From the NCBI GenBank assembly GCA_046705145.1, contig JBJKQO010000027.1:14852-78851 (forward strand): a DNA stretch of 64,000 nt. The letters are read 5' to 3'. A program made the position numbers and the translations under genes. The notes under the pieces were generated by a model. The model ran no database searches. It was not told where the DNA came from and saw only the letters and a list, made by a program, of their open reading frames with translations. Shown piece by piece: positions 1 through 63,640 of this stretch. Every line of letters starts with the position of its first letter. Positions within the stretch are counted from its first letter, which is position 1. The stretch is from Candidatus Woesearchaeota archaeon. Its GTDB lineage: Archaea > Nanobdellota > Nanobdellia > Woesearchaeales > JBJKQO01.

Positions 1-43
1 AAGCCTCGCAGATTGATGCTGACCTTGTTTATGGCAAACTAGA

Positions 44-3704: not shown

Positions 3705-3761
3705 TTTTGATCATCATTGGTTATATTTCAAATGAGGGTCTATGTTTAGCCCTCTTATCTT

Positions 3762-3887
3762 ATAGAAAATTTCTGTCGAAATTTTCTATTCCAAAAATTG
3801 GCTAACAAGATTAGCAAGCCGTAAAACTCCGACCTTTAGGTCGGAGTTAGGCGAGCAAATATTGGTAATTAGCCAATTTTTGTTATC
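3762..3887 (-). repeat. Family-1 nested-palindrome element, copy A (inverted relative to copies B and C)
   Basis: Reverse complement is about 96% identical over ~107 nt to copy C at 56194-56346. Outer 13-bp inverted repeat AAAAATTGGCTAA/TTAGCCAATTTTT, inner hairpin CTCCGACC-TAAA-GGTCGGAG, tail ATAGAAAATTTC..GAAATTTTCTAT. Lies in the pheS-pheT intercistronic gap. Confidence 0.7.
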
Positions 3888-5428
3888 CCTTCCATCCATG
3901 TCTTTACTGTCCTTAGTGTTTTCAGGTCGTTGTTGTATATCTGCCTGATATCGTTGAACTTGTAATAGGACATCATTATCCTTTCCATGCCCTGCCCCCA
4001 TGCAAGCACAGGAACTGCTTTTCCAAGCAGCGGCTCGACGACTTCCGGACGAAATATCCCTGATCCTCCAAGCTCTACCCATGTGTTGCTGACAGGGTGA
4101 AGGACGTCAACTTCCATGGAAGGCTCTGTATATGGGAAATGTGCTGGTCTCATCCTGACATCCTTGTAGCCCATCTTCAGGTAGAACTCCTTCAGGTATC
4201 CTTTCAGGTGCTTCAGGTTTGCGTCAGGATCTACAACTATCCCTTCGACCTGCACGAACTCGAAAAGGTGTTTCCATGACAAGGTCTCGTTCCTGTATAC
4301 CTTGTTGACTGAGAAGAACTTTGCAGGAAGGTCAGATTCCTTTAGCTTTGATATCGCCTGGGCTGACAGCACTGTCGTGTGGGTCCTGAGGAGGTTTTCT
4401 TTTGCGACGTTCTCATCCCACTTGTAGCGCCAGCCTTTGCTTCCTGTGTTTCCGCCTGCCTCGTGTGTTGCCTTCACCTTGTTTTTCAGGGGCATCGGAA
4501 GTTTTCCGCAGCTTGGATCGTCTATGTAGAACGTGTCCTGCATGTCCCTTGCAGGGTGGTCCTGGGGCACGAACAGGCTGTCAAGGTCCCAGAAGGCTGT
4601 CTGGACCATTGTGCCTGTCATCTCTGTGAATCCCATCTCAAGCCATATCTTCTTTATGTATTCTATGGACTGGTTGACAAAGTGCCTTCTTCCGCCGTAT
4701 ATCTTAGGCACGTTGATCTTTACATCATATCTTCTGAAGCTCTTGCCTTTCCATGAGCCGCTCTTGAGCATCTCAGGAGTGAGCTTTTCAAGGACGTTTT
4801 CTGATGATACTTTCTTTTTTGAAAGCCTCTTTCCAAGGTCTGTCGGGACAAGCGTCCTTTCCTTTGTGAGGGCTATCTTGATCATCTCTTTTCTTTTTTT
4901 CAGATTGTCAAGAGCGAGCTTTTCAAGGTCTTTGATGTCAGATATGCTTGCTGCTGACTTCTCAAGCCTCTTTAGCAGGTCCTCTTCAGGTGTGTTCTTT
5001 TGAAGCAGCTTTTTGCCCTGATCGGTTATCGCGACCATCCCTTTTTCAAGGCTTATCGCCATCTTCCCTTTCAGCATGCCAAGAGAAGCGTTAAACTCCG
5101 TGTTTTCAAGCTTTGTCTTCTGGAGAAGGTCTTTTATCGTGAAATCTCCTTTCTCAAGCGCCTTTAGCATCTTTCTTTCAGGAAGGCCTTCTTTTGCGTA
5201 TTCCTTTCCGTTCTTGTCCAGGGAAACCTTTTCTGCCTCCTCAGACTCTATCTTCAGAAGCCCTTTGTTCTCAAGCCACTGCGCACCGCGCATAGCTTCA
5301 ATAGGCTTTAGCCCTGACTTCTTGCATGCCTCATCAAAGGAGATGTCTGAAGCAAGAAGAGGAAGCAGCTTTCGCTCATAATTGCTGAGCGATTCCAGTA
5401 GCCTTTGCTCATCTGTCGTTTGCGCCAT
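3869..5428 (-). CDS. pheS: phenylalanine--tRNA ligase alpha subunit (archaeal type)
   Basis: 519 aa. Class-II aaRS catalytic-core motifs (FRPE, HPARDMQDTFY, GxGxER). The last four codons (TKIG) and the stop are encoded by the terminal inverted repeat of the family-1 element. Confidence 0.9.
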   Translation of the reverse strand: MAQTTDEQRLLESLSNYERKLLPLLASDISFDEACKKSGLKPIEAMRGAQWLENKGLLKIESEEAEKVSLDKNGKEYAKEGLPERKMLKALEKGDFTIKDLLQKTKLENTEFNASLGMLKGKMAISLEKGMVAITDQGKKLLQKNTPEEDLLKRLEKSAASISDIKDLEKLALDNLKKRKEMIKIALTKERTLVPTDLGKRLSKKKVSSENVLEKLTPEMLKSGSWKGKSFRRYDVKINVPKIYGGRRHFVNQSIEYIKKIWLEMGFTEMTGTMVQTAFWDLDSLFVPQDHPARDMQDTFYIDDPSCGKLPMPLKNKVKATHEAGGNTGSKGWRYKWDENVAKENLLRTHTTVLSAQAISKLKESDLPAKFFSVNKVYRNETLSWKHLFEFVQVEGIVVDPDANLKHLKGYLKEFYLKMGYKDVRMRPAHFPYTEPSMEVDVLHPVSNTWVELGGSGIFRPEVVEPLLGKAVPVLAWGQGMERIMMSYYKFNDIRQIYNNDLKTLRTVKTWMEGITKIG

Positions 5429-10811: not shown

Positions 10812-10828
10812 TCATGCATTGGTCTTTT

Positions 10829-10890
10829 GTCAGGACTTGTTTATGAGAAAACCCACCTCTACAAGTCCTGACATTTTTTTTATTTTTTTT
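10829..10890 (+). terminator. hairpin plus oligo-T terminator downstream of the MCP gene
   Basis: 12-bp inverted repeat GTCAGGACTTGT/ACAAGTCCTGAC immediately followed by T8AT8. Confidence 0.5.
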
Positions 10891-10898
10891 GATTTCTG

Positions 10899-11123
10899 TT
10901 TATTGCGAGTTTTTCTAATAATTTTTGGTCAGCATCAATTTGCGAGGCTTTTCAGAGAAAAAGACTCAGAGTTTGGGGGGGTCGCTTGCAAACTTGTTTG
11001 CAAGTCCGCCAAGATATTCTTGGCGATACACCATCCGGGGCTCAAACGGATGAAGCAGGTATCAAGAGCACAGCCGAGCCGATGCTGACCAAAAAAAGAA
11101 TTATTCGAAAAACTCGCTTATTG
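10899..11123 (+). mobile_element. Family-2 MITE-like element, copy 1 (long form)
   Basis: ~37-bp terminal inverted repeats: TTATTGCGAGTTTTTCTAATAATTTTTGGTCAGCATC at the 5' end, and the reverse complement of GATGCTGACCAAAAAAAGAATTATTCGAAAAACTCGCTTATTG at the 3' end. Internal CCATCCGGGGCT block and palindrome TTGCAAACTTGTTTGCAA shared with other copies. The ORF 10729-11088 inside it is judged spurious. Confidence 0.6.
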
Positions 11124-13014: not shown

Positions 13015-13215
13015 GCTCAGTAGAAAGTCTCGCTTCGCTCGGAGGCATCGGCTCGCTTGTGCTTCTTTAGCAAGAATGTGCTGCGTCCCCGGATGGGGTG
13101 TCGCCAAACGAGTTTGGCGGACTCATGAACAAATTCATGAGCAACCCCCCGCGACGCACTTGATTTATTAGCAACAGAAGCTCGCAAAACTGATGCCCTC
13201 ACACTTTCTACTGAG
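13015..13215 (-). mobile_element. Family-2 MITE-like element, copy 2 (divergent, inverted)
   Basis: Reverse complement carries CATCAGTTTTGCGAGCTTC, the GGGGGGTTGCTCATGAATTTGTTCATGAGTCCGCCAAACTCGTTTGGCGACACCCCATCCGGGG block and GCACAAGCGAGCCGATGCCTCC, each matching copy 1. Outer 13-bp inverted repeat CTCAGTAGAAAGT. Starts 15 nt after the TraB stop. Confidence 0.45.
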
Positions 13216-13266
13216 CCTTTATCAAACTAAAACTTTTTATAATAGGACATACAAGATAGGCTATAA

Positions 13267-23668: not shown

Positions 23669-25336
23669 TCATGTTTTTGCGATATTGTGGTAAAGCTCCA
23701 TCCCTGTTTCAGGATTGCTGTAGACAAGCTCCATCCTGTCAGAATGCCTTATCTCGTCAGCGAAATCTTCAGGCACGTGAAGAGAGGCCTGCACGAACTG
23801 CTGGTTTATGAGAACGTAATCTGCATGGTATGCGTTTGAGTATTCTTTGAGTCCGCTGTGAGAGTTTATGGCCGGCCTGCCAAGAACGTAATAGAATTCC
23901 TGCGCATTGTTCGTAAACACTGAACTGCCTTCAGGTATCATGGTTCTCATGCTGGAAAAATCCTGGTCATATTTGTGCCACTGCTGTGCTGCGCCGTAAT
24001 GGATAGCTGCTGTGCTTGCAGCGTAGCCAATCATGAGCAGGGCAAGTGCCGCAAATATAAGGTTCCTGTATCTTATCTTTTCTACCATCTCTATCCCTAA
24101 CGCCCAGAATATGCCTAAGGTCATGACTGCGGGCATGAAGTAACGCGGCACTATCTCTCCATACATGATTGTCGGAAGAATTAGGCCAACCACTAAGAAA
24201 AGTAAAAAAAACGAAAGTACGGTCTGGAAGCGCTGTTCTTTCAGTCTCATCCTGGATAACCCGAAAAAGAAAGGTACCATGTAAAGAAAGCATCCTATTA
24301 TCCAGATCGCGATCATAAGGTTTATGAAAGGGATGTTTAAGAACTTGAATGTTTCTATCCTTCCTGCAGGAAGCCCGAAAAACTGAAGCAGTCCGTTATA
24401 GGTCTCAAGCCTGAAAAAGTTGTCCAGTCCTGGGTGGGAATCGTACATGAGTGGCGTGAATTTTGCTGAATCCTTGAATATCGCTCCTGCATAAGGCCAT
24501 ATAGGATCTCCGAAATGGACGTATTGGAACAAGAAGTATGGCGCTCCGACAAGAAGCGTAATGGCAAGAAAGACAGCTGACCTTCTGGCGATAGTCAGTG
24601 CTTCATCCTTTTTTGGGAATGCAAATATGCCTTTTTTGGATGACTGGATCGCTATTATCGCAATTATAAGCGGTATCACCAATATCCCTGTCTCTTTTGC
24701 CAGTATGTTAAACCCTCCTGCCACCCCTGCAAGGATGTATCTTCCTTCAAGTGCGAAATAGGCTGCAAGCAGGAAAAGCATGACAAAGAATGTGTCAGAG
24801 TAAGGCTTTGCGTCAAAGTAAAGGTTTATCGGAAAGAAAGAACAAAACAGGGTGGTGTAAAAGGCTGTCTTCTCTGAGAACAGCTTTCTTGTTATGAGAA
24901 AAGTAAGTATAAGGCTTATGGTTCCTGAGACCGGCGAGACAAGCTTCATCATGAAGACTGCAAAGCCTTCTCCGAATAGTATGGATATCTTGTATACGAA
25001 AGCGACGGCTATGTTGAAAAGGAAAGGCTTTCCAAATACGTATCTTCCGACAGTGTCATAGACAGGTATCCTGTATGTCTCAGCGATAAACTTGGCAACT
25101 CCCAGGTGCCATGCCCCGTCAGATGAGGGGTAGACGATTACCGAGAATATCACCCTAAGAAGAAATGCGGCTATTATCATGTAGAGAGCAAGTTTTGCAT
25201 AGTCTCTTTTCCCCTTTTGGTTGGCCATGCATGATAAGATTACTTTTTTGTATTTATAGCTATCGTTTGGATTGGTTATCATATGGGTCACTGTTGAAAA
25301 ATTAGGTAGCATCAATTTGTGAGCTTCTTCAACCAA
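23669..25336 (-). CDS. GT-C fold membrane glycosyltransferase (ArnT/PMT-like)
   Basis: Multi-TM protein with an acidic first-loop motif (SSDGAWH). Probable true start is the internal ATG at 25228 (MANQKGK). Confidence 0.5.
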   Translation of the reverse strand: MVEEAHKLMLPNFSTVTHMITNPNDSYKYKKVILSCMANQKGKRDYAKLALYMIIAAFLLRVIFSVIVYPSSDGAWHLGVAKFIAETYRIPVYDTVGRYVFGKPFLFNIAVAFVYKISILFGEGFAVFMMKLVSPVSGTISLILTFLITRKLFSEKTAFYTTLFCSFFPINLYFDAKPYSDTFFVMLFLLAAYFALEGRYILAGVAGGFNILAKETGILVIPLIIAIIAIQSSKKGIFAFPKKDEALTIARRSAVFLAITLLVGAPYFLFQYVHFGDPIWPYAGAIFKDSAKFTPLMYDSHPGLDNFFRLETYNGLLQFFGLPAGRIETFKFLNIPFINLMIAIWIIGCFLYMVPFFFGLSRMRLKEQRFQTVLSFFLLFLVVGLILPTIMYGEIVPRYFMPAVMTLGIFWALGIEMVEKIRYRNLIFAALALLMIGYAASTAAIHYGAAQQWHKYDQDFSSMRTMIPEGSSVFTNNAQEFYYVLGRPAINSHSGLKEYSNAYHADYVLINQQFVQASLHVPEDFADEIRHSDRMELVYSNPETGMELYHNIAKT

Positions 25337-25496
25337 TATATTAAGGCCGACGAGGGGGGTCCCTTAAAAAAGCTGAGGCTTTTTTTAGTCCGCCAATCAT
25401 AATTGGCGACACTTACGGGGAAGTCGGCCATGAAAGACTAAGAAGCACAAGCGAACCTGATGCTACCCAAGGCGACAGCCGAGTTTTTCAACAGTG
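25289..25496 (+). mobile_element. Family-2 MITE-like element, copy 3
   Basis: Perfect 13-bp outer inverted repeat CACTGTTGAAAAA. Inner ends TTAGGTAGCATCAATTTGTGAGCTTC and GCACAAGCGAACCTGATGCTACC. Internal GGGGGGTCCC and GTCCGCCAATCATAATTGGCGAC palindrome. Confidence 0.6.
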
Positions 25497-25534
25497 TCCC
25501 CCCATATAAGAAACCTTTTTATACAAAGTAGGTT

Positions 25535-35537: not shown

Positions 35538-37502
35538 CTAGTTCACCTTGAACAGCATGACAGCTCCATTTTGCATTACAGGCTCAAACAGCTTTGAGTC
35601 AGCCATACGCCCTACAAATATGTTGGTCTCATTGACCCCAAGTTCCTGGGTGTCTCTAGTGCTGATTATCATGTACTCATAGCCTTTCGCCTTAAGTGAT
35701 GAAGCAAGCTGTTCAGGCGGTAGTGAGTATGCTGTTTTCTGGAGGCTTTTGACATCATCGCACCATTGGCATATGTACTTGTCAAATCCAAGTACATATG
35801 CTCCGCTTGATAGTGAGAACACTCCTGTGTTTGCCGGAAGGGAATAAAGCTGCGTAAATCCTGCAAGCTCATCATATGATGTCCAGCCAACTCCTGGAGG
35901 CCACTGGGCCCTGTTATACACGAATTTAGGGTAAGTAGAAGTCAGGATGACAAGTGCTATTATCGCTACGACTGTCACTGCTTTTGGTATGCCTACATTT
36001 TTGAGCGAGTCAGCAAGTGCCACAAGGCCGTAGCCTGCAAGGATAGATACTGGTATCGCAAGAAGCATCCAGAACCTGAATGCGAAAAGGCCTACAGGAA
36101 GATGGAAGGTTGCGGAGTTGACGCCGAGAAAAGTGAAAGCAAGCCACAAGAGGGTTATTGCAAGCCACTTGTTCTTTGAGTCAAGAAGCTGCCTGTATTT
36201 TACTGCTGCTATCACCAGGCCGACTATCGCAAGTATGCATATAGCTATGCCTATCCCTATAGGGTTGTTTATCATGTTGTTTGTCCTTGCTACAAAGAAA
36301 TCGCTGAAACTGTATGCCCTTGTTGCAGAGCCGCCTGTCGGGCTGAAAAAAGTCCCTATCCCATCAAGGAAAGATGTTCCTGAAGAGCCTGCGAGCTGCA
36401 CTTCTGATACTCCGGAAAGCCCGTTTCTTCTTATCAGCACAGGAACCCACCATAAAAGGGATATTGCTGCACCTACAGCTCCTGCCACAAGTGAATCCCA
36501 GTGGACCTTCTTGTGAGCAAGTGTCCTTATGAGCCAGTATGCTCCGAGGAAAAACGCGAACTTGATCGATTGTGATGGATGTGTGAGCATTATTGATGCT
36601 ATCGCTATCCCTGCAACATATTTCCACTTCCTGCCCCCATCCATCATCTCAAGAGAGTAAAGTGCTATGAAGAAAAGAGCAGGTATGAGGGCGTGAGCCC
36701 ATATGAAATGGCTAAGGAAACATGGTATCGAAGCGAGGATAAAAGTGGATGCGAGGGCTATCCTTTTGCTCTCGGAAAATCTCATGACAAAAAGATAGAA
36801 GAAAAGAAGGCAAAGCGATATGAGAAGGGCGTTAAAGAACTTCATGGTCCAGTTTATCGAGGGAGATGTCTGGTGCAAGACCCCCATCATCATCTCGTAT
36901 CCTGGCGGGTAGGGGTCAAGGAAGTTTGTGACATATCCTCCTTTTGGTGCGAAAAGGTCCTTTTCTACCGCTATGTATTTCACGCCTATCGCATGAGTCC
37001 AGGGATCATCATCCTCAAAGTAAGGGTAGCTGAACGCTCCGCTTGCATACATGAAAAAGGTTGCTGCAAATATGAGAATGGCCAGCGCAGAATAGATGTT
37101 GCTCTTTGTAAGCTTTATCTTGTCAAGTGTCGGTAAGCTTATCTTGCCTGAGTTCCTTATGAGCCATATCGATGGATATATCAAGCTTGCTGCAAGAAAT
37201 ATCCTCCAGTCGATAGGCAGCCTAAGGAAATTTATCGCTGCTCCCAGCACTATGAACGCGCTGATGCCGAGGCCGACACGCATGACTATCCTCTCAAATG
37301 CGTTTTTTGATTCATTCAGGAAAGAAGTGATCGTAAAGCCCAGTCCATAGGTGTATATGAAAAAGAGAATAATAGTTATCCAGCTCGCCAATGCATGCAC
37401 CCCCTTTGATATCTTATAAGCTGGATAATCTGTCAATATTATATAAATCTTATTGATTTGGGAAGCTTCTGTTGAAGGACTTTGAAAAGCTGTGCTTTTC
37501 AA
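35538..37502 (-). CDS. large polytopic membrane protein, putative GT-C-like glycosyltransferase/polymerase
   Basis: About 14 TM helices, an acidic loop YFEDDDPWTH, no WWDYG AglB motif. The first ~10 codons lie inside family-2 element copy 4, so the true start is uncertain. Confidence 0.4.
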   Translation of the reverse strand: MKSTAFQSPSTEASQINKIYIILTDYPAYKISKGVHALASWITIILFFIYTYGLGFTITSFLNESKNAFERIVMRVGLGISAFIVLGAAINFLRLPIDWRIFLAASLIYPSIWLIRNSGKISLPTLDKIKLTKSNIYSALAILIFAATFFMYASGAFSYPYFEDDDPWTHAIGVKYIAVEKDLFAPKGGYVTNFLDPYPPGYEMMMGVLHQTSPSINWTMKFFNALLISLCLLFFYLFVMRFSESKRIALASTFILASIPCFLSHFIWAHALIPALFFIALYSLEMMDGGRKWKYVAGIAIASIMLTHPSQSIKFAFFLGAYWLIRTLAHKKVHWDSLVAGAVGAAISLLWWVPVLIRRNGLSGVSEVQLAGSSGTSFLDGIGTFFSPTGGSATRAYSFSDFFVARTNNMINNPIGIGIAICILAIVGLVIAAVKYRQLLDSKNKWLAITLLWLAFTFLGVNSATFHLPVGLFAFRFWMLLAIPVSILAGYGLVALADSLKNVGIPKAVTVVAIIALVILTSTYPKFVYNRAQWPPGVGWTSYDELAGFTQLYSLPANTGVFSLSSGAYVLGFDKYICQWCDDVKSLQKTAYSLPPEQLASSLKAKGYEYMIISTRDTQELGVNETNIFVGRMADSKLFEPVMQNGAVMLFKVN

Positions 37503-37590
37503 AGGGACAACCCCTTAGCTCTGAGTTCGTTTAACAGAAGGAGCATCGTAAATTGATGCTACCTTCACTTTCAACAGCAGCTATTAAGCG
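37473..37590 (-). mobile_element. Family-2 MITE-like element, copy 4 (short, inverted)
   Basis: Reverse complement begins CTGTTGAAAGTGAAGGTAGCATCAATTTACGATGCTCC and ends CTTCAACAGAAGCTTCC. Internal palindrome TTGAAAAGCACAGCTTTTCAA. Confidence 0.4.
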
Positions 37591-51214: not shown

Positions 51215-52456
51215 TCATTCATAACGCAAGGCATCCACAGGCTTAAGCTTGCTTGCCTGCCATGCTGGGACTGCTCCTGCTGCCATGCCGATAAATACTG
51301 ATATGGCAAGCGCCATTAGGATCAGCTTCATGCTTAGGACTCCTCCTGATCCAAACATCCTAAACATCCCTCCTGTGCTTCCCATAAGGGATGGTAAGAC
51401 TCCTGATAGCACTATGCCAAGTATTATGCCTAAGAACCCTCCTATGAACCCGATAAGTGCTGCGTTAAGGAGGAATATCTTGAGTATGTCGTTGTTTCTT
51501 GCGCCTATCGCCTTCATTATCCCTATCTCTTTTGTCTTCTCTATCACTGAAGTGAACATAGAGTTTGCTATGCCTACTGCACCTACAAGAAGTGCAACTG
51601 CTGCTATCGCTGTAAGGAATGTTGTGAGGGAGCTTGTCATCTGCGCCCTTTGAGCCTGTCTTTCCTTGTTTGAGGATATCGAAAAATCAACTTTTTTCCC
51701 TATGACATGCCTTTTTATCGAAAGCTTTTCTGTTATTGTTGCCATGGTAGTGTCAAGCTGGTTCTCATCCTTGACCTTGATTATTATGGTGTCATATACC
51801 CCTTTTGTCTTGTCTGAAAGCAGAGTGTATGCATCGTCTATCGGCATATAGACCGAGCTTGAGTCGTCATCAAGAATGCCTACTATCCTGTAAAGCTTGT
51901 CGCCTATCGTTATCATCTGGTTTACTCCGAGCTGCACTCCAAAAAAGCTTGATGCAAACCTTCCTCCGACAACTATAACCCCTGCATCTGCAGGGCCAAG
52001 AAGCCTTCCTGAAGATGTTTTTGATGTCGTTATCTGGTACCATGAAGCAGGATCGACTCCTGTTACTGAGACTGATCCTTTTTTTGCAAGATAATATGCG
52101 TCTGCGCTGCCGCTTATCTGCGTGTCTATAACTTTTATGTCACTTATTCCCCTTAATACCTGAAGGTCTGTCTTGTCAAGCACGACCTCATCTTTTGATG
52201 CTGAACTTGTGCTCCCAAATCCTCCTTCTCCTGGCCCAAACCTTCCTGCTCTTGATGCTCCTGCCCTCAAGGTAAGAAGGTCTCCTCCAAGCTGGCCCAG
52301 TTGGTCGTTCATCTCCTGCTTAAGGCCTTCTCCGATAGCTACTATCGCAACAACAGCCCCAACACCTATGACTATACCAAGGATGGTAAGCCAGCTTCTT
52401 ATCTTGCTGTTTAGCACCATCTTGAGCGCATGCTTGAAAGATTTGGAAAGTTTCAT
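51215..52456 (-). CDS. ABC transporter permease, FtsX/MacB-like
   Basis: 413 aa. N-terminal TM, large extracytoplasmic loop, three C-terminal TM helices. Confidence 0.8.
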   Translation of the reverse strand: MKLSKSFKHALKMVLNSKIRSWLTILGIVIGVGAVVAIVAIGEGLKQEMNDQLGQLGGDLLTLRAGASRAGRFGPGEGGFGSTSSASKDEVVLDKTDLQVLRGISDIKVIDTQISGSADAYYLAKKGSVSVTGVDPASWYQITTSKTSSGRLLGPADAGVIVVGGRFASSFFGVQLGVNQMITIGDKLYRIVGILDDDSSSVYMPIDDAYTLLSDKTKGVYDTIIIKVKDENQLDTTMATITEKLSIKRHVIGKKVDFSISSNKERQAQRAQMTSSLTTFLTAIAAVALLVGAVGIANSMFTSVIEKTKEIGIMKAIGARNNDILKIFLLNAALIGFIGGFLGIILGIVLSGVLPSLMGSTGGMFRMFGSGGVLSMKLILMALAISVFIGMAAGAVPAWQASKLKPVDALRYE

Positions 52457-52502
52457 TTATTTTACCTTCTGATCGCCTTTATCACTTGGCATGATCCTCT
52501 TC

Positions 52503-53945
52503 TTATTTCTTCTGCTTTTTCTTCCTTGACTTAAACAGTTCCTTTACAGCCTTGCTGTAGGTATATCCTGGATCGTCGAGCTTGCCGCTCTTGTATCTTA
52601 TGTGCACAAATACGAGTGCAGCTACAAGCAATACCCCTATTATGTACCATTTGTAATTTGTCCATATCTGCTGGTAAACTGGTTGTGTCTGTCTTCTTCC
52701 TGCAAAACCGTTTGCTCCGCTATATGATGTTGAGTTTGACATGCCTGAAGACATCTCTATCGGCACTTCTTTTTCTATCGTGTTCCTGTTTCCTCTGGAA
52801 TCGGTGTATATTATATCTACCTTCACAGTTGAGCTTCTGCTTGCCTGAGATCCTGCTGTCTGGTTCCTTGTCCTCTGGTATCCTGATGCTCCTGCTGATT
52901 GGGTGTCTGTTGATGAAGGGTTCTGCTGGAATCCTGAAGTCCCTCCAGTCTGCTGCAATGAGAAACTTGCTATCGTGTAGTCTCCTTCATTCAAATTTCC
53001 TATTATTGCTGAGCTGCTTCCGCTGACTCTCCATCCTGACTGTTGTGGTATGCTTACAGTGACAGAGCTTGCAGATACGCTTCCGATGTTTGCGACTGAA
53101 AATGATGCCTGGCCGCTTGATGTTCCTGAGTAAGCGACGTCAAAGTCTGTAGCTCCTCCGACGTATATTCCTGCTTTCGTGTCTATCTCTTTTTCTGTTC
53201 CTGTGGTGGAGTCGCTGTATGTAAGCTTGAGGTCAAGCTTGTACAGGTCAGGGTCTGCGTTTGCGCTTGCTATAACATTGAAGTTAAGCTCTGCGCTGTC
53301 TCCGACATCTATGAACTTTATGTATTTTGAGTTGTCAGAACCTACAGGAAGGATTATGTCATCTGAGTTCTCCCATTCAAACGTGAGGTCCCTAAGAGGG
53401 CTTGATCCCACATTATTTACTGTGAATGTCATAGGAGTTATCTTTCCCGGGACCAGCTCTACCTGGTCTATATATACTATCTCTGCACTTTCCTTGTTCT
53501 CAACATCTACTGATATTGTCTGTTCAGAGACAGTCTCTGGCTTTGCCTTCTCATATGCCTTTATCTTAAATGTGTATGTTCCTGCTGTTACAGAATTAGC
53601 AACCATCAGCTTGAACTTGACTATCTTCATGTCTGAATCGTACTGGAATGCTTTTATCGCGCCGACATCGATAGTTGACTTGTCACCTTCTACTATAGAA
53701 AAGGGGTATGAGGGTACGATCTCAAGCACAAGGTCGTCTACCTGAACTCCTCCTCTGTTTTCTACGCCAAGCCTTATCTCTACCGTATTTCCGCCTGACG
53801 CAGGATCAGGGTCCTGGTTGACAAGGCTTAAAGAGAGCGCCTTGCTGTCGCTTAGCGATCCCAGTACTAATGATGAAAAAAGCACCATCACAATCAATAA
53901 GATACCTGATAATATTATCTTTCTCATTTTGTTTTCCTCCTTCAC
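52503..53945 (-). CDS. secreted CARDB/Ig-like repeat protein with a C-terminal TM anchor (accessory component of the ABC unit)
   Basis: Signal peptide; beta-rich repeats (FTVNNVGSSPLRDLTFEW); Ser/Thr/Gly-rich linker; C-terminal TM. Confidence 0.5.
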   Translation of the reverse strand: MKEENKMRKIILSGILLIVMVLFSSLVLGSLSDSKALSLSLVNQDPDPASGGNTVEIRLGVENRGGVQVDDLVLEIVPSYPFSIVEGDKSTIDVGAIKAFQYDSDMKIVKFKLMVANSVTAGTYTFKIKAYEKAKPETVSEQTISVDVENKESAEIVYIDQVELVPGKITPMTFTVNNVGSSPLRDLTFEWENSDDIILPVGSDNSKYIKFIDVGDSAELNFNVIASANADPDLYKLDLKLTYSDSTTGTEKEIDTKAGIYVGGATDFDVAYSGTSSGQASFSVANIGSVSASSVTVSIPQQSGWRVSGSSSAIIGNLNEGDYTIASFSLQQTGGTSGFQQNPSSTDTQSAGASGYQRTRNQTAGSQASRSSTVKVDIIYTDSRGNRNTIEKEVPIEMSSGMSNSTSYSGANGFAGRRQTQPVYQQIWTNYKWYIIGVLLVAALVFVHIRYKSGKLDDPGYTYSKAVKELFKSRKKKQKK

Positions 53946-54670
53946 GATTTTTTCTCGATCTTAAGTATATTTCCGTCTTTAAGTTCTATCACTGTATGAG
54001 CATATTTTGCAAGGTTAAGGTCATGGGTTACCATGATTATTGTCTTTCCTTCTTCCTGCCATAGCCGCTTTAGCATCTCAAGGATCTCTTTTCCTGTGAC
54101 TGAGTCAAGCGCTCCTGTGGGCTCGTCTGCAAGTATTATCTCAGGATCTCCGACAAGGCTTCTTGCGATCGATACCCTTTGCTGCTGGCCTCCTGAAAGC
54201 TGCGATGGCAGGTGGTGTGTCTTGTCAGAAAGCCCGACTATGTCCAGGATCTTTTTTGCCTTGGTATATGCCTGCGAGTCATCCATCTCCTGGAATTCAA
54301 GAGGTAATAGCACGTTCTCAAAGGCAGTCATGGAGGGTATCAGGTTGTACTGCTGGAATATGAACCCTATCGTCTTTCCGCGAAACGATGCCAGGTTTGA
54401 CTCGCCAAGCGCGCTTATGTCATGTGATTTCAGAAATATCTTGCCCTTTGAGGGTATGTCAAGGCATCCTATCAGGTTCATCATTGTCGACTTTCCTGAG
54501 CCTGATGCCCCTATTATCGCGACAAAATCTCCCTTTCTTATATCGACACTTACTCCTCTAAGTGCAGGAACCTCAACTTCTCCCATCTTATAGATTTTCC
54601 ATACATTATCAAGCTTCAATAGGATCTCAGCTTGTTTTTGGGAGACCTGTTGAGTTTTTTGTTTTGCCAT
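53942..54670 (-). CDS. ABC transporter ATP-binding protein (MacB/LolD-like)
   Basis: Walker A GASGSGKST, signature LSGGQQQRVSIARSL, Walker B IILADEPT. Confidence 0.9.
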   Translation of the reverse strand: MAKQKTQQVSQKQAEILLKLDNVWKIYKMGEVEVPALRGVSVDIRKGDFVAIIGASGSGKSTMMNLIGCLDIPSKGKIFLKSHDISALGESNLASFRGKTIGFIFQQYNLIPSMTAFENVLLPLEFQEMDDSQAYTKAKKILDIVGLSDKTHHLPSQLSGGQQQRVSIARSLVGDPEIILADEPTGALDSVTGKEILEMLKRLWQEEGKTIIMVTHDLNLAKYAHTVIELKDGNILKIEKKS

Positions 54671-54688
54671 CTAAATGATACCTCTTTT

Positions 54689-55150
54689 TTAGCTTGTCTG
54701 CTCCGCAGGCACAGCCTCTCCCTGAGGGGCGCCTGTCCTTTGCTGCGTGCCATCCCACTCTGGCCTGCATGATAGTATGTTGTTTTCAGACAGCCTGCAT
54801 GTTCCTTTCATATCTCCTCTGTCAGAAGAGACTGTGCAGGAATCATCTTCGCTCTTGTCCTGGCAGGCTTCCTGGAACAGTTTTTGCATCTCTTCAGACA
54901 TTATCTGCCTTGGTTCACGGGTTTGATTTGTAGAGTTATTAAACCTTTGCCTTGCTCTTCCTTCCTGGCTAGGGGTTTGGCCGTCTGGAGAGGGGCCTGT
55001 GGTGCCTGAGGCTCCCTCTCCATCAGCTCTTACGTTTTGGTTGCTCGTTGGGGTGGTGGGTATACCAGCGCTTTGGCTGCAACCTGAGATGAAAAAAGAT
55101 CCAAATACGAGTACACATAATGCCACTGCAATTGTTAGTGTGGTTCTCAT
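54689..55150 (-). CDS. putative lipoprotein, low complexity
   Basis: MRTTLTIAVALCVLVFGSFFISGC lipobox-like N-terminus. Start taken at the internal ATG 55150. Confidence 0.45.
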   Translation of the reverse strand: MRTTLTIAVALCVLVFGSFFISGCSQSAGIPTTPTSNQNVRADGEGASGTTGPSPDGQTPSQEGRARQRFNNSTNQTREPRQIMSEEMQKLFQEACQDKSEDDSCTVSSDRGDMKGTCRLSENNILSCRPEWDGTQQRTGAPQGEAVPAEQTS

Positions 55151-55269
55151 CCTTATTGACCTCCTTGATATGTTGCTTTTTTCCGTTTTAACTGTGATTA
55201 TGAGTTTTGGATGTTGTCTATTTATAAGCAAAGTGGATGACAAGTCCATCTATCGATCTGATCTAAAAA

Positions 55270-55480
55270 AATAAAAAAAATTGGCTAATTACTATTATTA
55301 GCTCGCCTATCTCCGACCTAAAGGTCGGAGTATTACGGCTCGCTAATCTTGTTAGCCAATTTTTGGAATAGCAAAGTCGAGCCTGTATCAAAAAACGAAG
55401 TTTTTTGAAATGCTCGGTAAGCTTTGCTTACCGACATATCTACAACCTAAAGGAAATAGTATTAGGCTCGACTTTTCTAT
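55270..55480 (+). repeat. Family-1 nested-palindrome element, copy B (with long variable tail)
   Basis: Core AAAAATTGGCTAATTACTATTATTAGCTCGCCTATCTCCGACCTAAAGGTCGGAGTATTACGGCTCGCTAATCTTGTTAGCCAATTTTTGG. Variable module AGTCGAGCC..CGGTAAGCTTTGCTTACCG..GGCTCGACT. Ends TTTTCTAT. Confidence 0.7.
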
Positions 55481-55506
55481 AAAAAAATAAAAAATGTTGG
55501 TGTGGT

Positions 55507-56043
55507 TTAGTCTTGTTCAGCCTGAGATGCTGGTCCTCTTCCTTCCATCCCATGATCTCTCATGCCCATCCCTGGACCGCCGAAGCCCATACCTATAGGA
55601 GTGTCAAGGCCAATCTCTTCTGAAAGAGTTTTTGCGGTGTCAAAGTCTTTTTCAGCCATTGCGTTGTGCATCTCAACAAATGTGGCGAAGTTATCCTCTG
55701 TTATGACCTCTTTTAGCTTGTCAGCCATTGGGCTTCCTTCTATCGCTGCAAGCCATGCGTCATAGTCTCCTGCACTTATCGCATCTTCCACAGCCTGTCT
55801 TTTCTCTTCCATCTGAGCCCTGTTTTGCTCTCTTTCCTGGTATCTTGATACCTCATCTGAGAACTGGGTCTCATTCATCATGTTTGCGGTGTATGCTGTC
55901 TTGTAGGCTTCGTAGTCTCCTGCACTTATCGCTGACCTTATGTTTTCGCCTTTACCGTTTCCGAATGGAAAAGCGAAAGCTCCAGCAGCGACAAGCCCTA
56001 CCAGAAGAAGGGCTAACGTCCCTATCATTGCTGTTTTCTTCAT
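55507..56043 (-). CDS. secreted protein with tandem AISAGDY(E/D)A(Y/W) repeats, hypothetical
   Basis: Signal peptide (MKKTAMIGTLALLLVGLVAAGAFA). Two ~50-aa internal repeats. Gly/Met-rich C-terminus. Bracketed by family-1 copies B and C. Confidence 0.5.
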   Translation of the reverse strand: MKKTAMIGTLALLLVGLVAAGAFAFPFGNGKGENIRSAISAGDYEAYKTAYTANMMNETQFSDEVSRYQEREQNRAQMEEKRQAVEDAISAGDYDAWLAAIEGSPMADKLKEVITEDNFATFVEMHNAMAEKDFDTAKTLSEEIGLDTPIGMGFGGPGMGMRDHGMEGRGPASQAEQD

Positions 56044-56193
56044 TTTTGGTTTACCTCCAAATGTTTATGAAAAGATGGGGCGCTTCCGTAATATTTAAAT
56101 AAGAAGAAGCACAGATGTACACTTTAGGTCCATATTGTTTATATATGATATAGGCAATCCTAAGATCATATAATATATTATTAATAACAAAAA

Positions 56194-56346
56194 TTGGCTA
56201 ATTACCAATATTAGCTCGCCTATCTCCGACCTAAAGGTCGGAGTTTTACGGCTCGCTAATCTTGTTAGCCAATTTTTGGGATAGAAAATTTCGACATAAA
56301 TGTCGGGGTTTTAAACCCCCTGAAAATTTCTAGTCGAAATTTTCTA
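56194..56346 (+). repeat. Family-1 nested-palindrome element, copy C
   Basis: Same core as copy B (differs by 2-3 nt). Variable module ATAGAAAATTTCGAC..GGGGTTTTAAACCCC..GTCGAAATTTTCTAT. Confidence 0.7.
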
Positions 56347-56385
56347 TAAAATTAAAAATAAATTTAGAATATCAAAGGTGAAAAA

Positions 56386-57063
56386 ATGCCTCCACCCCCC
56401 TTTTTTGACCCGCTAAGGTTCGGGACAGAGCTTGCGTACACGATAGTAGTCGTGTTCTCATGCTTCTTGATATATTTCAAGACTAAAGAGACCTATTCTT
56501 TGACTAAGCATCTTGGTATCAAGTACTTCAGGAACGCGTTTTTGTTCTTCGGGCTTTCTTATGCTTTGAGGCTTGTGTTTAGCATTGCACGGTTTTCGGG
56601 TATGGTCTTTAACTGGCATTTTTTTAGCCCTGGCCCTTCTCCGATCCTGCTGCTTACCATGAGCTACCTGAGCACGATAGGGATATTCTATCTCCTGTTC
56701 AGTTCTGTCGGCAAAAGGCTGAGAGAAAGGATGGACAACAAGTATCTTATCGCGTTTAGTCATGTCATTGCATTTGTCCTTGCAGCAGGAACTTTTGTCA
56801 CAAGGTCTCATGAGATCCTTCTTTACATACAGTCGCTTTTGCTTTTGGTCGTGCTGGTGTTCAGCTTTGTTACGCATAAGAAGCAGAAGAAGATATCTCC
56901 TATCAAGGTGCTTTACATACTTATCTCTGTGTTTTGGTTGATAAACCTTTGGGCGATAGCTCCTGGATGGATGTTTCCGTTTGAGGTCAAGATATTGTTC
57001 CAGATGATATCGGCGGTAGTTTTTGTCGTCATGTATTTTAGGGTTTCCAAGTGGGTAAAATGA
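56386..57063 (+). CDS. integral membrane protein, hypothetical
   Basis: 225 aa with 6-7 TM helices. Overlaps the downstream wHTH gene by 13 nt. Confidence 0.45.
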   Translation: MPPPPFFDPLRFGTELAYTIVVVFSCFLIYFKTKETYSLTKHLGIKYFRNAFLFFGLSYALRLVFSIARFSGMVFNWHFFSPGPSPILLLTMSYLSTIGIFYLLFSSVGKRLRERMDNKYLIAFSHVIAFVLAAGTFVTRSHEILLYIQSLLLLVVLVFSFVTHKKQKKISPIKVLYILISVFWLINLWAIAPGWMFPFEVKILFQMISAVVFVVMYFRVSKWVK

Positions 57064-57335
57064 ACAAGAAAAGAGACAGGCTTGAGGTCATATTTGACAT
57101 ACTTAAGATAATAAGTAGTAACCATAACTCTATCAAGCCCACTCCTCTTCTTCGGCAGTCTAACCTTTCTTCCAACAGCTTCGCTGAATACTACAAGGAG
57201 CTTGAGGCAAAGGAGTTTGTCAAGGAGATAACAGACAGGAAAGGAAAGAAGTACATAACCCTGACAGACAAGGGCTTCAAGTACCTTGAGAAGTACAGGC
57301 TTATTCTAGGTTTCATAGACGAGTTTGAGCTGTGA
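57051..57335 (+). CDS. small winged-helix DNA-binding protein
   Basis: 94 aa. Helix/turn/helix plus wing pattern (LLRQSNLSSNSFAEYYKELEAKEFVKEITDRKGKKYITLTDKG). Confidence 0.45.
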   Translation: MGKMNKKRDRLEVIFDILKIISSNHNSIKPTPLLRQSNLSSNSFAEYYKELEAKEFVKEITDRKGKKYITLTDKGFKYLEKYRLILGFIDEFEL

Positions 57336-57348
57336 GTAGGAACAGAGA

Positions 57349-57498
57349 AATTCTAATAATTGGGGTCAGCATCAATTTGCGAGGCTTATCACCTCCCTCA
57401 TCAAAAGAGTTGAGGGGGACGCCCCATCCGGGGCTTCAACGATTGAAGCACAATCTGAAGCACAGCCGAGCCGATGCTGACCCAAAATTAACAATCCT
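57349..57498 (+). mobile_element. Family-2 MITE-like element, copy 5 (short form)
   Basis: The 5' 24 nt (GGTCAGCATCAATTTGCGAGGCTT) and 3' 23 nt (GCACAGCCGAGCCGATGCTGACC) are identical to copy 1. Shares the internal CCCCATCCGGGGCTTCAACGATTGAAGCA block. Terminal inverted repeats CTAATAATTGGGGTCAGCATC / GATGCTGACCCAAAATTAACAATCC. Confidence 0.6.
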
Positions 57499-57554
57499 CC
57501 AAAAAAAACAAAAGCTTAAATACAAGCGATGCGAGTTTGCGTTGACGATATATA

Positions 57555-58052
57555 ATGGATTCAAAGGTTGATGAGCTAAAACGCGCATATTCCCTGCTTG
57601 ACTCATTCGTGTCAAGGACAGGAGGGATGAGCCAGAAGGCTCTTGACCACGCACATCTTCTTGCAAGCATAGCTTCCCGCGCACATGAGAAGGACCTGAA
57701 GAGCTGGTCTGAGAAGCTTATAGAGCAGATCGAGAAGGGAAACTATGAAAATTCTATGAAGATAATCGAGGCTCTTAAGCAGAAGACTGCTGAGATGATC
57801 AAGGCTGCTGAGTTTAAGAATAAGGAAAGTGTCTCGCTTCCTGAGATGCAGCTTTTTGAGCTTGTCAGGTGCAGGAAGTGCGGTGTCATGATACCTTCTG
57901 ATTCTAAGTTCTGCGGCAAGTGCAAGGCGCCGCACCAAAAGGAGCAGGCTCATAAGAGCATGCTTGCGAAGAAGAAATGTTTCAAGTGCAGGAAAGTGAT
58001 ACCGTCAGAATTCTCGTTCTGCTGTTACTGCGGCGAAAAGCAGATAGGATGA
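57555..58052 (+). CDS. double zinc-ribbon protein, hypothetical
   Basis: C-terminal CRKCG..CGKC and CFKCR..CCYCG motifs. Confidence 0.45.
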   Translation: MDSKVDELKRAYSLLDSFVSRTGGMSQKALDHAHLLASIASRAHEKDLKSWSEKLIEQIEKGNYENSMKIIEALKQKTAEMIKAAEFKNKESVSLPEMQLFELVRCRKCGVMIPSDSKFCGKCKAPHQKEQAHKSMLAKKKCFKCRKVIPSEFSFCCYCGEKQIG

Positions 58053-58145
58053 TCTGGCACTAAAGATGTGCGCCATCCTAAGGCCCGGGCATAAGGAGGA
58101 GCCTGGGAAAACTATAAAAAGGATTAATCCTTTAGATAAAAAGAT

Positions 58146-58604
58146 ATGAAATACAAGTACTCTCTGATCTTGGGAAGCATCGCTTTCATCCTATCCGTAA
58201 TCGTGTTCTTCTGGTCAAGCTCTATTGTTGGCTATATCCTGAAAGTCTTGTTTGTAAGTGGCTACTTCTTCCTGCTCGGATTGTCAATAGATAAGAAAAA
58301 AAGGATCTGGCTGGTTGTGATTATAGGGGTTATTATTGCATTATTAATCCTGTTTTTCATATTGACGTTCGGGTTCAAGCACACTGCAGAGTGTTTCCCG
58401 TTCGTGTATAAAAACGTATTCACAGGTGAATGCGAACTAAAATGTGGCGGCTTATCTTCCAAACATCCTATCTGGTACTGGAAGCATGTGCCTGATGATC
58501 AAGATTGTTTTGATGAGGCTGTAGAAAAGGCGTGCAATAATGATCCAGAATGTATAAAAAAAGCAAAAGAAGAAAGAATGATTATGCATTTTAGAATACA
58601 ATAA
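58146..58604 (+). CDS. membrane protein with a Cys-rich extracytoplasmic C-terminal domain, hypothetical
   Basis: 3 TM helices, then 8 Cys in ~70 aa. AT-rich gene. Confidence 0.4.
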   Translation: MKYKYSLILGSIAFILSVIVFFWSSSIVGYILKVLFVSGYFFLLGLSIDKKKRIWLVVIIGVIIALLILFFILTFGFKHTAECFPFVYKNVFTGECELKCGGLSSKHPIWYWKHVPDDQDCFDEAVEKACNNDPECIKKAKEERMIMHFRIQ

Positions 58605-63552: not shown

Positions 63553-63640
63553 TTTTGGGACGCTGTTGAAATTTTAGGTAGCATCAATTTGCGAGCTTCT
63601 TTACATCCAAGATCAAGGCTGGCCCGGATTCTTTTTCTAC
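63553..63640 (+). mobile_element. Family-2 MITE-like element, copy 6 (5' half only)
   Basis: CTGTTGAAATTTTAGGTAGCATCAATTTGCGAGCTTC is nearly identical to the copy-3 5' end. No 3' terminal inverted repeat was found within 150 nt. Confidence 0.35.

Follow-up and report, generated by a model that had tools for sequence, protein, structure and literature searches.

Structured MITEs in the intergenic regions of a Woesearchaeota genome: a family conserved in its internal fold

The stretch of Woesearchaeota DNA analysed here, 64 kb in length and referred to below as the window, is filled through most of its middle (13267-49718) by a large glycosylation and polysaccharide gene cluster, encoding GT1, GT2, GT4 and GT9 glycosyltransferases, PMT-like transferases, epimerases, radical SAM enzymes and a flippase. 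A gene for a methyl-accepting chemotaxis protein ends at a terminator-like hairpin with a trailing T8 run (TGTCAGGACTTGT...ACAAGTCCTGACA, 10828-10883), which lies about 20 nt upstream of the first full copy (c1) of a small repeat that recurs along the window. Four copies of this repeat are full (c1, c2, c3 and c5), two are truncated or rearranged (c4 and c6) and one is cut by the window edge (c0). Each full copy forms a single long, imperfect foldback that comprises, from the outside inwards, an outer stem P0, an asymmetric loop or bulge, a helix P1, a bulge J, a helix P2, linkers, a helix P3, a G-run and an apical hairpin. In these terms, and with GGCTCTGTAGAAAA-like ends denoted type A, the copies are as follows.

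c0, 1..24, minus strand: P1-J-P2 5' strand (GGTCAGCATCAATCTGCGAGGCTT) of a copy cut off at the start of the window; the DAHP synthase stop lies 19 nt upstream
c1, 10905..11117, plus strand: full copy, long form
c1 outer stem P0, 10905-10923 with 11099-11117
c1 P1, 10927-10936 with 11081-11090
c1 J bulge AATTT, 10937-10941
c1 P2 including the tandem G.A, 10942-10949 with 11072-11079
c1 P3 (GTTTG/CAAAC), 10971-10975 with 11043-11047
c1 G-run, 10975-10981
c1 inserted hairpins, two, about 10984-11026
c1 apical hairpin, about 11029-11040
c2, 13015..13217, minus strand: full copy, long form, type-A ends (GGCTCAGTAGAAAG...), 3' bulge GAGCGAAGCGAGA, P3 of GCGUC/GACGC; begins 15 nt past the TraB gene stop
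c3, 25285..25500, plus strand: full copy, long form, type-A ends GG(G)TCACTGTTGAAAAA / GGGACACTGTTGAAAA, P3 of GGCCGAC/GUCGGCC; lies between divergent PMT-type glycosyltransferase and epimerase genes
c4, 37465..37581, minus strand: rearranged short copy retaining type-A ends (GCTGCTGTTGAAAG / GCTTCTGTTGAAGG), with an internal deletion that removed P2, so that the J loop directly links both P1 strands
c5, about 57354..57492, plus strand: full copy, short form (core 57364-57482), with P1/P2 strands as in c1, no inserted hairpins and a weak outer stem; begins 19 nt past the wHTH gene stop
c6, 63557..63640, plus strand: 5' half only, with the left type-A end GGGACGCTGTTGAAAT, the P1 and P2 5' strands and the start of the interior; the truncation point coincides with the end of the neighbouring minus-strand ORF

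The number of copies was established in several ways. The 16-mer AGCATCAATTTGCGAG, with up to three mismatches allowed, has 6 matches in the window against 0.93 expected, and none of 100 shuffled sequences reached 6. A covariance model built from relatives of the window elements, and run over the whole window with filters off, returned c5, c3, c1 and c2 as the only full copies (E values from 1e-35 to 1e-27), c4 and c6 as partial copies, and nothing beyond c1-c6. The preliminary description had counted at least six copies in 64 kb, a figure confirmed by the 16-mer count, by repeat finding and by the covariance model, with c0 as an unlisted seventh; its reading of c6 as a 5' half and of c4 as a short copy was also correct, the latter owing its size to the internal deletion. 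It had further called the density high, and seven copies per 64 kb match the 105 MITEs per Mb published for a Woesearchaeal genome, among the highest values in archaea in the survey concerned (PMC11602168).

Copies of the family also occur elsewhere. A scan of a genome collection with a short 16-mer returned 112 loci, of which two, in two other Woesearchaeota MAGs (L031 and L103), carry a recognisable copy; a truncated copy is possible at L079 and the remaining loci look like chance matches. In a stricter scan of metagenomes true copies were found on 11 contigs, two of which (L118 and L128) carry the same sequence, and a further divergent copy, L125:2788-2903, was found by the covariance model. 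At least 14 copies are present outside the window, on other Woesearchaeota contigs, and four of them, each on a separate contig of a single metagenome (L122, L123, L125 and L126), are near-identical. Viral contigs gave no match to any of four patterns. One of the Woesearchaeota-like contigs, L118, also carries a 5S rRNA gene (4479-4657, minus strand) whose helix III is interrupted, in its hairpin-loop region, by a 65-nt insert without similarity to the repeat family.

All 21 copies, in the window and in relatives, are intergenic and their orientation relative to the neighbouring genes is random; overlap with coding sequence is limited to one spurious ORF. As observed earlier, the window copies lie close to gene ends, adjoining the stop of the TraB gene, the starts of two PMT-type glycosyltransferase genes and the stop of the wHTH gene. 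Copies c3 and c4 occupy the two divergent promoter regions of the glycosylation cluster, beside PMT-like genes. The copies of the relatives are located at unrelated loci.

The elements are 115-220 bp in size and non-coding, and each full window copy folds far more stably than shuffled sequence (z from -5.7 to -6.9). The outer stem P0 is variable in sequence and extends over 11-19 bp. The 3' side of the asymmetric loop is purine-rich (GA...GAGA), with GAGA as its last bases and often with a mini-hairpin of GNRA or GAA type. P1 consists of NNNAGCAUC/GAUGCUNNN (..AGCAUC/GAUGCU..), J is a 5-nt bulge AAUYU facing one or two C, and P2 pairs 5'-GYGAGSYU with 5'-ARSCGARC, enclosing a tandem G.A/A.G mismatch between Watson-Crick pairs. 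The linkers between P2 and P3 are unstructured. In P3 pairing is kept and sequence is free, with the versions GUUUG/CAAAC, GUUGA/UCAAC, GCGUC/GACGC, GGCCGAC/GUCGGCC, GUUGACA/UGUCAAC, GCAAAAA/UUUUUGC and AUGCGG/CCGCAU. P3 encloses the G-run and a small apical hairpin, often with a UACG-type loop, and in long forms such as c1, c2 and c3 the G-run and the apex are separated by one or two extra hairpins, which vary by compensatory changes. Of the internal features named in the preliminary description, the blocks GGGGGG and CCATCCGGGG are borne out as the conserved G-run and apical hairpin, while the CAAAC..GTTTG palindrome, although present, is one version of the covarying helix P3.

In an alignment of 15 copies, fitted to the model so that pairing is inflated, 86.8% of the cells are paired and 19 of the 28 pairs show double changes; none of 500 shuffles reached the observed values, slid registers gave at most 36% pairing, and the helices read by hand agree. 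The first mismatch of the tandem, G.A, is present in all 15 sequences and the second, A.G, in 14 of them. No copy, from the window or from the 13 related loci, gave a match to Rfam 15 at gathering score, and at E values up to 10 the matches were spurious (P9, sR24). Several known structures were considered and rejected. A kink-turn of the kind that binds L7Ae, with a 3-nt bulge immediately 5' of the tandem G.A and a Watson-Crick stem beyond it, does not agree with our reading of the alignment, in which Watson-Crick pairs enclose the tandem G.A on either side and the AAUYU bulge lies two base pairs off. Kink-turn or C/D-box RNA, hammerhead and group II intron, as well as TnpB/IscB guide RNAs, the IS110 bridge RNA and retrons, were dismissed on the lack of an Rfam match and on the fixed-length duplications described below. 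A likeness of the G-run together with 'TCCWGTGAA' inserts to archaeal origin-recognition boxes (ORB) was set aside as too weak.

Since the fold is maintained by compensatory changes, we infer that selection acts on the sense strand in a single-stranded form, either transcript or DNA. Several motifs are favourable on that strand only, namely the tandem G.A in its 5'-YGAR context, the UACG-type loops and the GNRA/GAA mini-hairpins, and in the modelled helices, after removal of a trimming artefact, there are 15 G.U against 5 A.C. The folding energy of whole elements shows no bias between sense and antisense, the differences falling on either side of zero (-9.8 to +9.2 kcal/mol), and a conserved promoter is not apparent across the copies.

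The termini were delimited anew. The preliminary description had taken the conserved motifs for terminal inverted repeats; they are instead subterminal strands of internal helices. Likewise the 24-nt and 23-nt blocks of c1 and c5 are identical, as had been stated, yet they are not the ends of the elements but P1/P2 strands lying 15-30 nt inside. Terminus motifs of the family include GGCTCTGTAGAAAA and GTATGTATTAAG, and the outer stems, of 11-19 bp, are nearly perfect in c1, c2, c3, L121, L122-126 and L031. Type-A ends occur in c2, c3, c4, c6, L031, L121, L124 and others. A second kind, type B, reads GTATGTA... and is associated with 8-bp duplications. The ends of the near-identical copies L122, L123, L125 and L126 are GTAKGTATTAAGTCT...AGACTTAATACMTAC.

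Direct repeats of 7-8 nt proved to be common somewhere within 90 nt in a control with mismatched flanks, and therefore only duplications directly abutting the ends were counted. Perfect 8-bp duplications of this kind flank three of the four near-identical copies, GGTTTTTT at L122, GCACAAAA at L123 and CTACAACC at L126, and the flanks of the fourth, L125, match at 7 of 8 positions. L119, which has related GTATGTA ends, is flanked by a perfect 8-bp duplication TTATTTGG. L121, with ends GG(G)CACCGTTCAAAA, is flanked by a perfect 9-bp duplication TACTTTTGC. Sister MITEs that share the GGCTCTGTAGAAAA ends and are without the AGCATCAATTTG core also have perfect 9-bp duplications, as follows.

Sister MITE, L122:1775-1927, GGCTCTGTAGAAAA ends, 9-bp duplication ATTTTTTGT
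Sister MITE, L118:8509-8672, GGCTCTGTAGAAAA ends, 9-bp duplication GATTTTGTG
Sister MITE, L125:5241-5394, GGCTCTGTAGAAAA ends, 9-bp duplication TTTTTCACC

The L118:8509 element shares with the studied family only the module of P3, G-run and UACG hairpin together with the 3' bulge.

In the window itself the duplications are either eroded or equivocal: the flanks of c3 match at 5 of 9 positions and those of c2 at 6 of 9, and c1 has a possible 5-6-bp TTATT(G), while the outer stems of the same three copies are still nearly perfect. Such a combination could stem from the age of the insertions or from recombination between copies. With their duplications eroded and two copies truncated, the window elements appear to be mostly old. 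The target-site duplications that had been proposed as a check are perfect, at 8 and 9 bp, for young copies of relatives, and eroded or ambiguous for those of the window.

The family consists of mobile elements. That they are non-autonomous transposon derivatives (MITEs), as originally suggested, is supported by the abutting 8- and 9-bp duplications in relatives, by the unrelated locations and by the absence of coding capacity. A contrasting explanation, that they are immobile multi-copy cis-regulatory or structural RNAs, such as terminators or leaders, at fixed intergenic positions, would account for the strong folds, for the T-runs in the arms beside strong hairpins and for intergenic sites that are often just past stop codons or between divergent promoters. 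It is largely refuted by the target-site duplications, perfect at the young copies, and it has to contend with near-identical copies at unrelated loci, with the truncated and rearranged copies of the window and with the lack of association with any gene family or of an orientation rule; we consider it very improbable. The alternative posed at the outset, structured RNA rather than mobile DNA, does not divide the possibilities, because the elements are mobile and also carry a compensated structure.

Their dimensions, termini, duplications, number of copies and lack of coding capacity mark the elements as MITEs, and the family and its fold are new: no description of either was found in the searchable literature or in Rfam. 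Size, copy number and inverted repeats are those generally expected of MITEs, and the fixed-length duplications are found in the relatives. Prokaryotic MITEs such as Correia/NEMIS, ERIC, RUP, archaeal SM and MITEHarch are likewise small, non-coding, multi-copy and intergenic, with shared inverted-repeat ends, fixed-length duplications, long hairpins, size variants with common ends and a high density in a small genome. The present family differs from them in that its best-conserved block lies 15-30 nt inside the ends rather than at the tips, and in its compensated internal fold, its invariant tandem G.A and the occurrence of one core with three terminus types. Pneumococcal BOX elements and enterobacterial BIMEs are also recombining modules that form stable transcript hairpins; they are not known to have clear fixed-length duplications and are probably unrelated to the repeat family in sequence. 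Palindromes of the REP/BIME or IS200/IS605 type, which are moved by Y1/HUH enzymes without duplication, were rejected in view of the fixed 8- and 9-bp duplications.

We estimate a probability of about 0.8 that the repeats are a structured, non-coding, intergenic MITE family moved by a DDE-type transposase encoded elsewhere. A transposase of this class, acting from another locus, would cut the target in a staggered manner, and repair would leave short direct duplications, of 9 bp for elements with GGCTCTGTAGAAAA-like ends and of 8 bp for those with GTATGTA... ends. The fold would act in cis, rendering the element a good substrate for transposition or a tolerated resident, for example as a protein-binding platform or as a stable bidirectional hairpin sparing the neighbouring genes.

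A Pfam scan of 50 window ORFs recognised no transposase among them, and an autonomous partner with matching ends was not found among these ORFs, in the 13 related loci or on the viral contigs. The transposase family can be approached through terminus similarity and duplication length only, and the assignments that follow are qualified by this. IS903B has the ends GGCTTTGTTGAATAAATC and a 9-bp duplication CTCAGATGC (PMC10569121). Type-A ends match 14 of 19 inverted-repeat positions of the IS903 group of the IS5 family (GGCTCTGTAGAAAATCTCG versus GGCTTTGTTGAATAAATCG), and type-A elements share its 9-bp duplication (L121, L122:1775, L118:8509 and L125:5241), a likeness which rests on short ends and in which the host differs, being a DPANN archaeon. 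The combination of inverted repeat and 9 bp points to IS903/IS5 for the type-A copies only, that is c2, c3, c4 and c6, and not for c1, c5 or the L122 group. An IS5-type transposase gene with type-A ends was not found in the sequence examined.

The IS6/IS26 family was the other main candidate. Its consensus GGTTCTGTTGCAAA has GG tips and TGT at positions 6-8, and IS6 elements are abundant in archaea (PMC8477213, PMC6807381, PMC7986276). Type-A ends share the GG tips, the TGT at 6-8, a G at position 10 and the A-run, matching 11 of the 14 positions of the published consensus, and two MITEs of this family, MITEBth2 and MITEHarch3, are known. Type-A ends also agree at 12 of 14 positions with GGCTCTGTTGCAAA, probably the end of IS6100. 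Derivation from IS6/IS26 is nevertheless not supported, because IS6 makes 8-bp duplications where the type-A elements have 9 bp, and the elements that do have 8 bp carry unrelated GTATGTA ends. The 9-bp duplication and the 14/19 match suit the IS903 group of IS5 better than IS6. Neither the type-B ends nor those of c1 and c5 (GCGAGTTTTTCTAATAATT) have a verifiable match to described IS ends. The only insertion sequence in the related loci, at L125:5404-6357, is about 950 bp long, encodes a 285-aa rve-type (integrase core) transposase and has the ends TGTGTTATCCCGAAACTATTTCC; it was rejected as a partner, its ends (TGTGTTATCCC...) being unrelated. The core-less MITE at L125:5241-5394 directly adjoins this insertion sequence.

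The relationship between core and ends is modular. The core is conserved better than the termini and is found with three terminus types, whose duplications are 9 bp, 8 bp and possibly 5-6 bp; conversely, interiors of at least three kinds are found between GGCTCTGTAGAAAA ends. The P1-P2 5' strand is the same in c1 and c5 and has one mismatch in c0, with outer arms that differ or are absent. L121 and L124 have cores differing at 4 unpaired positions only and arms that differ far more, and the two ends of L124 do not match each other. Recombination of co-resident elements, selection for the fold in master copies, or a function of the core itself could each be the source of this pattern, and to the last of these we give a minor share of the likelihood.

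Better conservation of core than of termini is the opposite of the usual MITE pattern, and it hints at such a function. The core might have its own role, functioning as a structured RNA or as a strand-specific module of single-stranded DNA, possibly as a protein-binding platform based on the tandem G.A; the MITE shell would then serve as a vehicle only, the core having been carried or captured by several termini, with domestication by the host as a further possibility. This would be in accord with the three terminus types and their differing duplication lengths, with the other interiors enclosed by the same GGCTCTGTAGAAAA termini, with the nearly alike cores and divergent arms of L121 and L124, and with the strong covariation and essentially invariant tandem G.A. 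It would also fit the sense-only motifs and the excess of G.U over A.C (15 to 5), the presence of the same GC-GA-GC / GC-GA-GC helix in a second repeat family of the window, and the intact cores of window copies whose duplications have decayed. Against these points stand the absence of a sense/antisense energy bias, the random orientation to genes and the lack of an evident conserved promoter, the absence of anything in Rfam even at E up to 10, and the truncation of c4 and c6, which indicates that not all copies are maintained. Moreover, selection for transposition competence in master copies could yield the same conservation, and template-switch correction of quasi-palindromes can mimic compensatory change. 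In its specific form, a DPANN structured module, most likely RNA or else a protein-binding sense single-stranded DNA, spread by at least two to three termini and domesticated in some copies, we regard the proposal as tentative and rather unlikely.

A different account of the modularity treats the core as a separate small mobile unit (about TAGCATC...GATGCTA) that inserts without duplication into the centres of palindromes already present, for instance hairpins or other MITEs. It would account for outer stems that differ in sequence and are nonetheless always self-complementary: these stems are unrelated between terminus types, yet paired right up to P1. Same-ended MITEs without the core do exist, and hairpins with variable loop inserts recur in the genome. 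However, no empty scaffold for any terminus type is present in the sequence available, the core is flanked neither by a duplication nor by a fixed boundary, the covariation in the outer part of P1 is simply that of an ordinary helix, and the 3' bulge motif (..CGAGA) is part of the right arm in core-less elements too. We hold this account to be improbable.

On the favoured reading, that of a structured MITE family mobilised in trans, the elements provide a clean case of a MITE conserved in its internal fold rather than in its ends, one that allows the role of the fold to be tested, transposition against co-option as RNA. The genomes of DPANN archaea are very small and are regarded as poor in mobile DNA, so that about 100 copies per Mb of a single structured family amount to a sizeable fraction of their intergenic space. 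If the core were a functional RNA or protein platform, it would represent a new class of non-coding element in a poorly studied branch, one that is mobile and structured and goes beyond an ordinary MITE.

The repeats also fragment short-read assemblies, and recognising them aids the assembly and annotation of these lineages. Logan short-read contigs from the window's organism (L113 and L114, SRR31309759) break exactly inside c1, c2 and c5, which is how a genome-wide repeat affects an assembly.

The window's RadA protein is 100% identical to one from an NCBI MAG, and its named matches are from Woesearchaeota or Nanoarchaeota. The nearest retrievable relative, of which a 9.7-kb contig carries no copy of the repeat family, has a RadA only 78% identical. 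In this relative (L115, 2475-2602) the gene for the CCA-adding enzyme directly follows RadA, where the window (51215-58604) has about 7.6 kb between them, containing MacB/FtsX genes, two repeats of the second family, the wHTH gene, c5 and a zinc-ribbon gene. The difference between the window and its nearest relative is this 7.6-kb block and not a set of clean insertions, and the repeats are thus located in a variable block.

The second repeat family, probably the 'Family 1' of the earlier account, has three copies in the window (3769-3886, 55270-55375 and 56183-56288), 105-118 nt in length and 92-96% identical. Its fold comprises an outer stem AAAAAUUGGCUAA/UUAGCCAAUUUUU, an apical hairpin CUCCGACC-UUU-AGGUCGGAG and an inner helix UUAGC-GA-GCC/GGC-GA-GCUAA, the last carrying the same tandem G.A as the MITE family studied, to which the second family looks unrelated. 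Beside each of its copies lies a hairpin module ATAGAAAATTTCGAC...GTCGAAATTTTCTAT (3746-3805, 55355-55490 and 56275-56350), with a loop insert of 4 nt in one copy and of tens of nt in the others.
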